Origin: Octopus vulgaris
Taxonomy: Eukaryota
Length of the DNA: 64,000 nucleotides
Assembly (NCBI GenBank): GCA_951406725.2
Contig: OX597815.1
Span: forward strand, 64,790,001 to 64,854,000
Direction: 5' to 3'
Within the stretch, counting starts at the first letter, position 1, and every line of letters starts with the position of its first letter. The notes beneath the pieces are model-generated. The model was not told where the DNA came from. It ran no database searches and worked only from the letters and a program-made list of their open reading frames with translations. Shown here piece by piece: positions 54,840 through 62,372 of the stretch. A program made the position numbers and the translations under genes.

Positions 54840-55793
54840 GTGAGTATATCTTTAGTTAACGTATCATATACGTTTATGAAAATCTGGTGTAAGGTTTACC
54901 GTATCGAGGCCATTGGACGACAAACCCTCTAATATCCTAATATATTTTGGAACTGGACAAAGGCAGTGAGTGTCCCCAGTTGAAAACTCGGTCTTTATTC
55001 TTTCTTCTTGTGCCAAAATATATTGGGTGCCTTTTATAGATCTGACTCGGTGTCTGATTTAGCGTCTCTGTATTTCTCTTTTGGGCCGGATTGACAAATA
55101 AATATATATATTTAGAGTGAAATATTTCTCTCTCTCTCTCTCTCTCTCTCTCTCTCTCTCTCTCTCTCTCTCTCTCTCTCTCTCTCTCTCTCTCTCTCTC
55201 TCCTCTGTCTAATTATCTCTTCAGTTTCTCAATGGTGAAATATCTATTATGTTTACAGATGATGTGAGTTCCACCTGTTGTTAGATGAGAGGATGTCTCT
55301 TCTCGTGTGACCACATACACTTATAAAACAAGTAGTGAAAGTCTAGTGTACTCACTCCCGACTGACAGCTAAGTTTCTGCATACATGTACACACATACGC
55401 ACACATATATATCTATACCTATGTATGTTTGTATGTGTGTGTATACACACACACACGCACACATTTATATATATATATATATATATATATATATATAATA
55501 TATATATACATATATATATATATATATATATATATATATATTGTGTGTGTGTATATATATATATATATACATATATATATATGTAATATATATATATACA
55601 TATATATATACATATATATATATATATATATATATATATATATATATATATATATATATATATATATATATATATATATGTATATATATATATTATATAT
55701 ATATATATATATATATATATATATATATATATATATATATGAAAAAACAAGTAAAAAATAGAAAATGCTAAAATAATTTTATAGTGAACATTT

Positions 55794-55831
55794 CAGTACC
55801 GGTTTCGGTCATTTTGAGACCTTTTCAACTG
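55794..55831 (-). ncRNA. Minimal hammerhead ribozyme, U3-A8 variant (mirror copy)
   Basis: Reverse complement of 62204-62241. Confidence 0.75.
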
Positions 55832-56547
55832 TAACGATTAAATAATTAAATTTAGAAAAATTAGAAGAAAAGTTTTTTTAAAACAATATTTCTATAGTAG
55901 TGTTCAGATTTAAGTGGCATTCTGCCTTTCTCTGACTCCCTTGTTTGCACTTGTGTGTTCGAGGTAGTTGTGAGTTCTTGGTAGGGTAGTAGAGGGAAGG
56001 CTGGTGAGGAAAGGGGGTGGGAGAATCTGGGAGTGCCCTGATGGTCGTATTTTGAATGGTCAGTGGCGGCTGGCAGTCTCAGTTCAATTCAGGAGAATAT
56101 TTATATCGACAGGCTTGTTTATAGAATTAGCGTAGGTGTTATACTAAAAAACATTAGTGACAAACTTAAGGGGTAGGGGGTGGAGAAGAAGAAGAAGAAG
56201 AAGAAGAAGAAGAAGAAGAAGGAGAAGGAGAAGGAGAAGATGATGGTGATGGTGGTGATGATTATGACGACGATGATGATGATAACGATGATGATGAAGA
56301 AGAAGAAGAAGAAGAAGAAGAAGGAGGAGAAGGAGAAGATGGTGGTGATGATGGTGGCGATGATGATGACGCCGATGATGATGATAACGATGATGATGAA
56401 GAAGAAGAAGAAGAAAAAAACAGAGAAGGGAGAATATGAATGGGTGTAAATATAGCTATGAAGGGGCTGATTAGTAATGGATTCTATGGAGTGTAGTATT
56501 TGTGTGTGTATATATATTTTTTTCTTTTATTCTAAAGTTGAGGTATA

Positions 56548-58878
56548 TTAATTGTTTGTCGTAGACCCGTTAAGAAGTGGCTTGTATTTTGTAATAAAGA
56601 GATTTTCTTTACTTATTCTTTGTCTCGAGGTTGTATCGTCCCTAAATTGGTAGAGGGGGAAAATTCTGAAGTTTGGTGTTTTTTTGTTGGCGCAAGTATC
56701 TATGTGTTGGCTAAAAGCTATTTTTCTGTTTTGGGGAATTTTTATCTGGGATCTGTGCAGGGCCATTCGTTTACGCAAACCATTTTTTGTTTGGCCTATG
56801 TACTGCTCTTGACACCCGGAGCAGGTTAGTGAGTATATTATGTTCTCCGAAGCACATGTGAAGTTGCTTTTCACTGTAAACCGTTGTCCCTGTTTGAAGG
56901 AGAACTCAGAACCCTCGATTAGATAGTCGCATATCCCGCAATTGGGTCTTCCACATTTTTTTACTGTCGGCTTCTGTGTTGAAGAGTGAATTCGGGCTTG
57001 TGTAAGGAGACTTTTCATGGATCTAGGCTGTCTTTTGCTTTTTATGATCGTGTGTGTTTGGAGGATTGTGTTCATTCTGTGGTCTTTTTTTAGGAGGGGT
57101 ATGTTGTGGAGGATGGTGTCGAAGGCTTCGTTATTGAGAGGGTTGTGTGTGGAGATGTATGGTAAGGCTTTTGGTTGTAAGTTTTTCTTTGATTTGGGAT
57201 GTCTCAGTTCCTTGATGTTAAGTTGAAGGGCACGTTGAATGCACTTGTCAATAAGTGAAGGTGGATAGTTCCTGGTGATTAGGGCATCTTTTAGTTCTTG
57301 TAGTCGTGTGTCTCTGGTGTTTGCGTTAGAGACTATAGTGCATATCCTTTTTGCTAGATTGAAGGGGATATTCATCCTGGTGTGTCTGGGGTGGCATGAA
57401 TTGAATGGAAGATATTGCTTAGAGTCTGTAGGCTTATAGTATATGTCTGTTTCTATTATATTATTAGCTTTCTTAATGAGGATATCGAGGAAGGGGAGTT
57501 GTTGTTGGCTATATTCCATCGTGAATTGGATGTTTACGTCCAGTCCGTTTAAAATTTTCTGGAATTCTATGAGTTTTTCTATATTTTTATGCCAAAGGAT
57601 GAAACAGTCATCTAGATATCTCTTCCAGTTGTTTTCTATGTAGATGGAGAAAGGGCTGCCATATCTTTCTAGAACCTTACGATACAGACTGATCTCTAGG
57701 TATCCTATGACTAGGTTGGCAAAGGAGGGGGCCATTCGTGTACCCATCGCAGTCCCCGATTTTTGTCGGTAGAAGTTGTCATTGAAGGCGAAGAAGTTAT
57801 TTTCCAGGATGAATTTAACCCCTTCTATCACAAATTCTTTTTTGATGCGGTGTGGTAGTTCGTTGGCGTGATTCTCTAGCCAGAATTGGATTGCCTCTAG
57901 TCCTAGGTTGTGGGGGATATTGGAGTAGAGGTTGACTACATCGAAGGATACCAGTATGGTGTTTTTGTTTATAGTATTCGGTAGGTGATTGAGCATATCT
58001 AAGTCGTCCCTTATATAGCTTTTGACATGTTTGAGGAGTGGTTTTAACAGGGTGTCTAAAAAGTTACTGAGGCGGTGGGTTTCGCATGCGGGACCTGCTA
58101 TTATGGGTCTCAATTTGAGGTCATTAGGATTAGGGACTTTAATTATTTTGTCTGTAGCTATCTTGCATGCGTTGCTTATTTTTTCACTTTTGTGGATCTT
58201 AGGTATACCGTAGAATTGGCTAGTTTTACTTGTGAAATTGGTCATATAATCATATTCTTTGTCGGTGAGCCCTGCTTTGTATGGGTTTAATATGGATTTT
58301 AGTTCCCTCATTATTTTTTGTTGACTGTAGTTTTGTGCCTTTTCATAGTATGTTGTGTCTTCCAGCATAGAAAGTACCAAAGTTATGTAAAATGTCGTAT
58401 CCATTAAGACAACCGCACTCCCTTTATCGGCCTCTTTGATTGTTATTGTTTTATCTAGTTTTAATTTGTTCAACTCAGCCCATTCTTTTTTGCTGAAGTT
58501 TGGTTTGTGTTTTTGTTTGTGCATATGTTGATATGGGTAATTTGATATGTGGTCACAGAAATCATCAAGTGTTTTATTCTTACCTTTCGAGGGGGTGTAG
58601 TTACTCCTATTTCTGGCTAACGATTCGTCCTCGTTGTATTTATCGTATAGCTCCTCAGTAAGTCTTAATTTTCTGCAGAATTCTGCGATGTCTTCTTTCA
58701 TTTCATTGTAGTTGGGGTGTTGTGGGGTGGGTGTAAACTTGAGTCCTTTGGAAAGTATGTTTATTTGGTTTGCTGTTAGTTCCTTGTGAGTTAGATTAAT
58801 AATTTTTATTACTTTTGGTTCCTCCTGCTTGTTTGGTGCTATCTTGTGTCTCTGTGTTTGCGTATTGGGTCTAAAAAA
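56548..58878 (-). CDS. PLE reverse transcriptase + GIY-YIG endonuclease, intact frame
   Basis: IINLT...LSKGLKFTPTP upstream of the annotated Met 58701; ADKG, FYGIPKIHK, LRPII, SFDVVNLYSNIP, GTAMGTRMAP, RYLDD, YYKPTD; linker CGRPNCGIC; NIIYSLTCSGCQEQYIGQT. Confidence 0.93.
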   Translation of the reverse strand, partial: FFRPNTQTQRHKIAPNKQEEPKVIKIINLTHKELTANQINILSKGLKFTPTPQHPNYNEMKEDIAEFCRKLRLTEELYDKYNEDESLARNRSNYTPSKGKNKTLDDFCDHISNYPYQHMHKQKHKPNFSKKEWAELNKLKLDKTITIKEADKGSAVVLMDTTFYITLVLSMLEDTTYYEKAQNYSQQKIMRELKSILNPYKAGLTDKEYDYMTNFTSKTSQFYGIPKIHKSEKISNACKIATDKIIKVPNPNDLKLRPIIAGPACETHRLSNFLDTLLKPLLKHVKSYIRDDLDMLNHLPNTINKNTILVSFDVVNLYSNIPHNLGLEAIQFWLENHANELPHRIKKEFVIEGVKFILENNFFAFNDNFYRQKSGTAMGTRMAPSFANLVIGYLEISLYRKVLERYGSPFSIYIENNWKRYLDDCFILWHKNIEKLIEFQKILNGLDVNIQFTMEYSQQQLPFLDILIKKANNIIETDIYYKPTDSKQYLPFNSCHPRHTRMNIPFNLAKRICTIVSNANTRDTRLQELKDALITRNYPPSLIDKCIQRALQLNIKELRHPKSKKNLQPKALPYISTHNPLNNEAFDTILHNIPLLKKDHRMNTILQTHTIIKSKRQPRSMKSLLTQARIHSSTQKPTVKKCGRPNCGICDYLIEGSEFSFKQGQRFTVKSNFTCASENIIYSLTCSGCQEQYIGQTKNGLRKRMALHRSQIKIPQNRKIAFSQHIDTCANKKTPNFRIFPLYQFRDDTTSRQRISKENLFITKYKPLLNGSTTNN

Positions 58879-61487: not shown

Positions 61488-62203
61488 TATACCTCAACTT
61501 TAGAATAAAAGAAAAAAATATATATACACACACAAATACTACACTCCATAGAATCCATTACTAATCAGCCCCTTCATAGCTATATTTACACCCATTCATA
61601 TTCTCCCTTCTCTGTTTTTTTCTTCTTCTTCTTCTTCATCATCATCGTTATCATCATCATCGGCGTCATCATCATCGCCACCATCATCACCACCATCTTC
61701 TCCTTCTCCTCCTTCTTCTTCTTCTTCTTCTTCTTCTTCATCATCATCGTTATCATCATCATCGTCGTCATAATCATCACCACCATCACCATCATCTTCT
61801 CCTTCTCCTTCTCCTTCTTCTTCTTCTTCTTCTTCTTCTTCTTCTTCTTCTCCACCCCCTACCCCTTAAGTTTGTCACTAATGTTTTTTAGTATAACACC
61901 TACGCTAATTCTATAAACAAGCCTGTCGATATAAATATTCTCCTGAATTGAACTGAGACTGCCAGCCGCCACTGACCATTCAAAATACGACCATCAGGGC
62001 ACTCCCAGATTCTCCCACCCCCTTTCCTCACCAGCCTTCCCTCTACTACCCTACCAAGAACTCACAACTACCTCGAACACACAAGTGCAAACAAGGGAGT
62101 CAGAGAAAGGCAGAATGCCACTTAAATCTGAACACTACTATAGAAATATTGTTTTAAAAAAACTTTTCTTCTAATTTTTCTAAATTTAATTATTTAATCG
62201 TTA

Positions 62204-62241
62204 CAGTTGAAAAGGTCTCAAAATGACCGAAACCGGTACTG
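62204..62241 (+). ncRNA. Minimal hammerhead ribozyme, U3-A8 variant
   Basis: CAG-TTGAAAA-GGTC-TCAAAAT-GACC-GAAA-CCG-GTA-CTG; palindromic ACCGGT stem III. Confidence 0.75.
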
Positions 62242-62372
62242 AAATGTTCACTATAAAATTATTTTAGCATTTTCTATTTTTTACTTGTTTTTTCATATAT
62301 ATCAACTCGTGTGTTCCTTTTCACCCTTATACATATATATATATATATATATATATATATATATATATATAT

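Follow-up and report, generated by a model that had tools for sequence, protein, structure and literature searches.

Endonuclease-containing Penelope-like elements (EN+ PLEs) are described in the abstract of PMC8557442 as having just one open reading frame (ORF), and other passages of that source give an inverted, 5'-truncated copy with a tail at one end as typical of PLEs. Among the PLEs treated in PMC3846280, of which Pen2a_Av of Adineta vaga is a canonical example, the head-to-head layout is the commonest inverted arrangement, and a TATATATA motif and a 31-bp tail on one inverted repeat are reported. Here we analysed a 64,000-nucleotide stretch of Octopus vulgaris DNA (contig OX597815.1, positions 64,790,001 to 64,854,000; hereafter the window), in which positions 55733-62332 hold two 5'-truncated copies of an EN+ PLE joined head to head, and in which the reverse transcriptase (RT)-nuclease frame of the longer copy, ORF2, overlaps an upstream frame, ORF1, in the -1 register at a slippery heptamer. 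Since the two sources give a matching layout, the architecture of the insertion is already known, and the -1 overlap is the more unusual feature. A first-pass annotation of this DNA had named inverted structures and microsatellite targeting as known for PLEs, in agreement with the same literature (PMC8557442, PMC3846280), and had missed the overlap. We favour a joint reading, to which we assign a probability of roughly 0.7: a young inverted insertion into (TA)n that arose from two nicks, together with a programmed -1 ribosomal frameshift through which the RT-nuclease would be made.

The locus shares with canonical EN+ PLEs a head-to-head inverted copy at the 5' end, a tail of 30-40 nt at one end, the TATATATA motif, a hammerhead and a preference for (TA)n. 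Unlike them, it consists of the inverted pair only, with no direct tandem of pseudo-long terminal repeats; its inverted arm measures 2.47 kb, whereas theirs measures ~200 bp; and it has neither a junction palindrome nor a definable target-site duplication. As in Neptune, a C-terminal GIY-YIG domain with a CCHH finger is preceded by a CX2-5CxxC linker and the target is a microsatellite, but here a helical ORF1 is separate, with the RT ORF overlapping it at -1 where a conserved heptamer lies. The available passages on killifish Neptune give two non-overlapping ORFs and no frameshift (PMC12602865), and those on Neptune-like PLEs with esterase ORFs note none (PMC3905857, PMC5408684). The portions of PMC6431247, PMC5718144 and PMC6515669 that were available held nothing further on the question. 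Our literature search, largely of partial texts, returned no text on ribosomal frameshifting in EN+ PLEs save the legend to Fig. 1 of PMC8557442 (and of its preprint), according to which a frameshift with a pseudoknot can set ORF1 apart, the clade being unnamed; Arkhipova 2006/2017, Gladyshev 2007 and Repbase may have one. The overlap of the octopus element is set here against retroviral and PLE types of frameshift site.

In HIV-1 gag-pol, a -1 frameshift takes place at U UUU UUA. The octopus element resembles this system in having an X XXY YYZ heptamer in phase and a structural ORF that overlaps an enzyme ORF over a short stretch. It differs both from HIV-1 and from the pseudoknot type of PLE, which is said to be that of Athena/Terminon, in lacking a conserved hairpin or pseudoknot and in having a zero-frame stop at least 30 nt, and most often exactly 30 nt, downstream.

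The ORF1-ORF2 overlap and its slippery heptamer

ORF2 (56548-58902, minus strand) is intact over 784 codons from stop to stop and carries an RT domain (RVT_1, E 3.6e-8, above the cut-off), a CX4CX2C linker and a GIY-YIG domain with a CCHH finger (E 3e-4; at 21.4 bits, just under the 22.6 cut-off). Across 33 aligned proteins, the DKG, AMGT and YLDD motifs and the endonuclease residues were conserved, the linker C650-X4-C655-X2-C658 was invariant, and so were C694, C697 and H716 of the finger, with H733 nearly so. Two cysteines lie between GIY and YIG, terminal repeats are formed by truncated copies with a 30-nt tail, and both 3' ends lie in (TA)n; the PLE identity that had been proposed for the locus thus holds at the level of domains, linker and finger. 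Judged from its predicted protein, the element is a Neptune-type EN+ PLE by the definitions of PMC8557442, and its RT motifs resemble, in a by-eye comparison, the Neptune rows of the supplement to that source, where the CX2-5CxxC linker is common to Neptune and Nematis and alone is not diagnostic. In a quick tree of 90 rows without named references, the window fell in a 16-row clade (Shimodaira-Hasegawa-like approximate likelihood-ratio support, 98) among linker-bearing loci. Instead of the single ORF of EN+ PLEs, the window and seven relatives have two overlapping ORFs. A second genome scan for relatives added one locus, and a search of viral contigs for relatives returned none.

The 5'-truncated ORF1 (58839-59834, minus strand) is open for 331 codons and ends in a TAG stop at 58839-58841. 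The RT frame lies at -1 relative to ORF1 and overlaps it by 64 nt, and within the overlap the heptamer U UUU UUA (58872-58878, minus strand) stands in the phase of ORF1, such that a -1 slip leads into ORF2; the stop lies exactly 30 nt past it. A homopolymer error in the assembly was considered as a source of the offset and was ruled out by relatives, by the C-termini of ORF1 proteins and by a contig of 2122 nt obtained in a different study from a different sample (run X2), in which the run length of the heptamer is unchanged and there is neither an indel nor a splice joint.

The phase of the heptamer was tested in 56 rows, comprising the window and 55 loci, one of which (L041) was too short. 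T TTT TTR was found in the correct -1 phase in all eight testable rows with at least 39% RT identity (the window and 7/7 relatives), in six of the eight at a common offset of -44 codons; the background in any frame was 4 such heptamers per 14,583 nt. In each of these eight rows a stop 0-12 codons upstream of the heptamer closes the -1 frame, and ORF2 has its first AUG behind a conserved N-terminal N-L-S/T motif. Among the 47 more distant rows, two have T TTT TTR behind a long upstream frame and four have other slippery heptamers at that place; frameshifting may, on this pattern, be wider among linker-bearing PLEs generally. Seven of the ten loci with T TTT TTR fell within the 16-row clade of the quick tree and L073 fell outside it, while L008 and L024 were too short for the tree; nine of the ten should belong to one clade. 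Another member of that clade, L011, is decayed and lay outside the heptamer test.

In L029 (1716), L032 (2436), L035 (2168) and L025 (418), A AAA AAC or U UUA AAC occurs in phase behind long upstream frames, in three of them directly followed by a stop. Long single frames were seen in L014, L019 and other distant relatives.

An ORF1 profile search gave 1010 clusters at 50% identity, the best 150 of which are 92-546 aa long, none long enough for a fusion with the RT; the best 120 of 509 ORF2 matches are 612-803 aa (431-1372 aa searched; 7996 candidates scored). In no locus was the ORF1 domain found in frame with the RT. The zero-frame reading of the heptamer is Phe-Leu (FL), and this pair was looked for in 94 of 151 ORF1 proteins, the other 57 having too little sequence after the domain; for the locus scan, the ORF1 alignment proved too variable. 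FL occurred within the last 35 residues of 67/94 homologues, compared with 6/94 in the preceding 35 residues and a mean of 8 (maximum 18) after shuffling. The residue before FL was Q, K, E, M or W in 0/67 cases against a background of 21% (P ~1e-7); codons for these residues cannot end in T, as the heptamer would require of the preceding residue. One homologue, P0129, reads FFF at its C-terminus and then continues in the ORF2 frame (KIYNLS motif), like a copy with one extra T, and gives a natural picture of the -1 product.

The ORF1 domain itself was predicted as three long helices (mean predicted local distance difference test score 94) followed by an R/N/Q/P-rich tail. It had no significant match in Pfam, no usable match in the Atlas and nothing in Foldseek at E up to 0.001; a fold search of the model returned generic helical bundles only (best Z 8.9, root-mean-square deviation 6.3, 124 aligned residues), indicating for the predicted structure neither kinship nor a new fold.

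These features are those expected of a frameshift site, an X XXY YYZ heptamer in zero-frame phase within the overlap and conservation of both heptamer and phase, and on this comparative evidence a programmed -1 ribosomal frameshift from ORF1 into ORF2 is likely. Most ribosomes would terminate at the end of ORF1, yielding a helical protein that probably binds RNA, and slippage of a minority at the heptamer would produce an ORF1-RT-EN fusion of ~1150-1250 aa (a size taken from intact relatives), giving a control of product ratio like that of Gag and Gag-Pol. Several observations weigh against this. Relatedness among the loci makes the counts non-independent; FL is absent from the last 35 residues of 27/94 ORF1 homologues; folding and a simple search of 14 loci for H-type pseudoknots found no conserved stimulatory RNA structure; and in seven of the ten loci the AG after the T run, TTTTTTAG, looks like a splice acceptor.

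This last point, the introns retained in PLEs according to PMC8557442 and the lack of an RNA stimulator near the heptamer would suit a different route to ORF2, whether splicing to the TTTTTTAG acceptor, non-AUG initiation, re-initiation or slippage of RNA polymerase. We consider such routes unlikely. Splicing at TTTTTTAG is weakened because three loci (L003, L081 and L017) keep T TTT TTG without an AG; moreover, the codon after FL does not begin with G in 20/67 ORF1 tails, and the X2 contig contains no splice joint, the record leaving it unstated whether X2 is RNA or DNA. An acceptor or a polymerase slip site needs no fixed phase, yet the phase here is fixed. An AUG was sought near the ORF1 stop in the ten T TTT TTR loci and was found in 0/10.

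Downstream structure and the distance to the ORF1 stop

The stem-loop or pseudoknot that frameshift sites have 5-9 nt downstream is absent from the window, although long-range pairing may exist. The sequence after its heptamer folds at -0.9 kcal/mol over 75 nt and at z +1.3 over 261 nt, and a clear hairpin was seen in only one of the ten T TTT TTR loci (L002, z -3.4). The distance to the ORF1 stop, in contrast to any such structure, recurs. In 24 of the 67 proteins the start of FL is exactly 12 residues from the end of ORF1, corresponding to 30 nt from heptamer to stop, and in none is it closer. Within the conserved domain the median identity of these 24 proteins is 35%; their positions are scattered across the tree with a concentration in one half, and their FL lies 231-335 residues from the domain start, a range of linker lengths of ~100 residues. 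In the DNA, the distance is 30 nt in six of the ten loci and 36, 36, 51 and 57 nt in the others.

Thirty nucleotides is about one ribosome length; the available text of bioRxiv 2023.07.12.548609 puts the footprint of a disome at 60 nt. A tentative possibility, which we rate as doubtful on sequence evidence, is that a large EN+ PLE lineage uses a Gag-Pol-like -1 frameshift stimulated not by RNA structure but by the ribosome terminating ORF1 ahead. The queued ribosome would be blocked while leaving the slippery codons, which would tie the output of enzyme to the translation load of ORF1. The spike at 30 nt could also stem from common ancestry or from a 30-nt RNA element that went unrecognised. 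Our search of titles and abstracts returned no paper on frameshifting driven by a termination queue of such a kind.

Anatomy and origin of the inverted insertion

The left copy (55733-59835, minus strand, 4103 nt; alignment and a colinear contig in run X2) is long and has no tail, and the right copy (59836-62332, plus strand, 2497 nt; alignment and ORF map) is short and tailed. Their shared parts form a left arm of 2469 nt (55733-58201, minus strand; inverted-repeat search and alignment) and a right arm of 2467 nt (59836-62302, plus strand), separated by a 1634-nt spacer present in the long copy only (58202-59835, minus strand), which contains the 3' part of ORF1 and the N-terminus of ORF2. 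Alignment of the arms gave 0 mismatches across 2467 paired bases in gap-free blocks of 358, 751 and 1358 nt, three abutting perfect blocks that are the longest inverted repeats of the window; a chance origin of this 2.47-kb repeat is far out of reach. The right arm differs only by the loss of a single A at each of two sites (A6 to A5 at 60193/4 and A7 to A6 at 60944/5), and both losses break the ORF of the right copy. In the 3' untranslated region of 845 nt lie ~240 nt of mixed trinucleotide repeats that are the same in both arms, a low-complexity tract at 61615-61856 (plus strand) mirrored at 56176-56420.

Both ends adjoin the target microsatellite. An internal CATATATAT (55741-55733), merging into a (TA)n array (55466-55740; perfect at 55694-55740), forms the end of the left copy, and the right copy extends 30 nt beyond the arm, in a tail at 62303-62332 (plus strand), and then meets a perfect 41-nt (AT)n run (62333-62373). 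A target-site duplication is not definable inside (TA)n, and the left and right flanks did not match each other. At the junction (59835/59836) there is no TA remnant; folding revealed no hairpin or palindrome (z +0.85), and on the right-copy side no homology to upstream element sequence was found. ORF1 of the left copy is open right up to the junction, and a contig of another sample (run X2) reaches 117 nt further 5' without entering the right arm, supporting a 5' truncation of the left copy. In these respects, the head-to-head pair, the two homopolymer indels, the single tail, the internal AT end and the double 5' truncation, the first-pass annotation has stood up.

Upstream of the 3' end lies a minimal type-I hammerhead-like motif (62199-62246, plus strand; mirrored at 55789-55836, minus strand), a U3-A8 core variant with a palindromic stem III. 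The Rfam match is weak (HH9, 19.7 bits, below the 52-bit cut-off); the fold supports the core, stems I-II and the palindromic stem III. The U3-A8 variant is on record (PMC4209133, available in part). A pattern search placed the motif at the corresponding position in related loci, whose cores were found in this way only; Rfam, run on 17 related loci with E up to 1, returned no families. The TATA-like CATATATAT of the right arm (62294-62302, plus strand), whose counterpart is the 3' end of the left copy, has equivalents in L001, L003, L004, L008 and L081, in which a TATATA run lies 50-100 nt behind the hammerhead. The order in relatives is hammerhead, TATATA run, ~30 nt, and then either ORF1 of the next tandem unit or genomic AT, with tandem units in L001, L003, L004 and L008. 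From this comparison, the internal AT run is a conserved feature of the element; a comparable internal run in rotifer PLEs is interpreted as a TATA box in the passages available from PMC3846280.

Outward from each flank, each copy is an antisense cDNA that begins at a target 3' end, and since antisense cDNA from both target 3' ends is its expected product, priming from both strands fits the locus. The nuclease of the element would nick both target strands, each nick priming its own cDNA. The top-strand nick would prime at the internal AT run (8-nt target match, no tail) and run for 4103 nt, and the bottom-strand nick would prime 30 nt further 3', keeping the tail, and run for 2497 nt; the two cDNA 3' ends would then be joined without a hairpin. 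Neither arm was copied from the other, because the left has 1634 nt absent from the right and the right has a tail absent from the left, which supports two separate cDNAs. Snap-back of a single cDNA was ruled out as a source, as it could repeat only sequence already copied, yet each arm has unique sequence.

In the available passages on PAc, a Poseidon element of Anolis, both strands are cut and extended in vitro at AT-rich DNA, and reverse transcription starts at two sites bounding the tail with no need for target homology (PMC11167929). The AT-rich target, the use of both strands and the two RT starts around the tail are common to PAc and the octopus locus; PAc, however, belongs to another clade and has a single ORF, and here the end that lacks a tail matches the target over 8 nt of AT. 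The earlier proposal that both cut strands primed thus fits the anatomy and agrees with this in vitro work, by which it is largely anticipated, although an explanation by one priming event remains, as weighed below. Its further idea, that AT homology anchored the priming, is shown for the tail-less end only: the tailed end of L003, which resembles the right copy in its sequence of internal AT run, 31 nt and AT, shares only 1 nt with the adjoining AT run, and PAc needs no homology. With regard to arrangement, L087 has an inverted-plus-direct structure of a similar kind.

Twin priming of L1 also uses both target strands as primers and yields an inverted product, but the pieces of that product come from one RNA and do not overlap. 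In the octopus locus the 3' 2.47 kb is present in both pieces, which would call for two templates, a tandem RNA or one RNA used again.

The age of the insertion was gauged from seven listed family contig pieces of another sample, which differ from the window at 13 of 3369 nt (0.39%); one piece with 20 differences in 221 nt was omitted. At this family divergence, 0 substitutions in 2467 nt of the arms has P ~7e-5. Sequence comparison thereby supports a same-template origin and the youth of the arms, and the recent date that had been suggested for the insertion is in keeping with this and with the intact 784-codon ORF2.

Some observations count against a young insertion from two nicks. Assembly polishing or gene conversion could also make the arms identical, and both deletions lie in A-runs of one arm, as in consensus errors of long reads. 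Because other samples show the left-arm A-run lengths at both indel sites, the right-arm losses are either specific to this copy or errors of the consensus. No read or contig was seen to cross 59835/59836: although at least half of the words were present in 20/24 listed sequencing runs, none of those listed being RNA, the raw DNA runs X21-X23, with 1.9 Gb searched per run, gave 11, 128 and 0 reads, with many short joints at which a read goes back, and so carry no weight on this point, and the comparison was made outside the repeats at 61502-61866 and 62320-62403, the latter including the tail ends. Finally, the tail/no-tail asymmetry was seen in single relatives only (L003 tailed, L082 possibly tail-less). 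In run X22, the reads on 58202-63200 consisted of short head-to-tail repeats of the element, 40-89 nt long, probably an artefact of a circularised-fragment library.

The lack of junction-spanning reads and the confinement of both homopolymer losses to one arm would suit an inverted pair created by a fold-back or chimeric long read, which we regard as very improbable: a fold-back read repeats only earlier sequence, whereas each arm here has unique sequence and a unique flank; collapse of two loci would need a colinear overlap; and the layout is the published norm for PLEs in the available text of PMC8557442 and is similar to that of L087. Unlikely, though less so, is a single priming event, in which an inverted pair was already present in the read-through RNA of an older locus, or an antisense RNA primed itself, with reverse transcription running from the tail over the whole unit; the tail-less end would be a product of annealing, or of trimming by a nuclease, at the internal AT run. 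The resemblance of this run to the target would agree with such a course, as would passages that ascribe head-to-head PLEs to self-priming on an antisense template (PMC3846280) and the tail to EN-mediated resolution (PMC8557442). It would, however, require a 6.6-kb RNA with a perfect 2.5-kb duplex, the junction has neither palindrome nor hairpin, and the origin of the junction would only be shifted to an earlier event. The least probable course is that of two insertions at different times into one microsatellite followed by gene conversion. Another hammerhead-bearing, TA-anchored element end does use the right AT run, a sign that the locus draws such insertions, but no TA remnant or duplication separates the two 5' ends, and the identity is perfect up to the final base of both arms. 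Considering these points, priming at two nicks is the reading we retain; the earlier interpretation as a whole is partly supported.

Surrounding elements and implications for the family

The window overall is microsatellite-rich animal DNA. The element end just mentioned (62374-62915, minus strand) is unrelated to the PLE and lies tail to tail with it on the right AT run. At 62707 it contains a hammerhead-like core whose stem II spans 40 bp, and a 76% relative of it occurs at 16416-16588, likewise flanked by TA runs. A weak zf-RVT match (63067-63465, minus strand; E 0.016) right of the locus is probably a fragment of a long interspersed nuclear element. At ~34000-34840 (minus strand) there is a decayed PLE RT-nuclease fragment of another family (34% identity over 195 aa) with no evident Zn linker. 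Among the relatives, L081-L097 and the named ORF2 matches are animal retrotransposons in bacterial assemblies, annotated as symbiont GIY-YIG proteins, and are most likely host contamination.

The inverted insertion itself is ordinary for PLEs. Its value is that of a clean natural case that excludes snap-back of a single cDNA and fits two-strand priming, so far demonstrated only in vitro and only for a single Poseidon element (PMC11167929). The conserved -1 frameshift, if true, would alter the single-ORF picture of EN+ PLEs and would give them a retrovirus-like control of the ratio of structural protein to enzyme. The annotated 750-aa 'complete' proteins of the clade would then be without their true N-terminal third, which would matter for reconstitution. 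If the 30-nt stop spacing is the stimulator, these elements would provide a natural and easily assayed instance of frameshifting driven by a termination queue.

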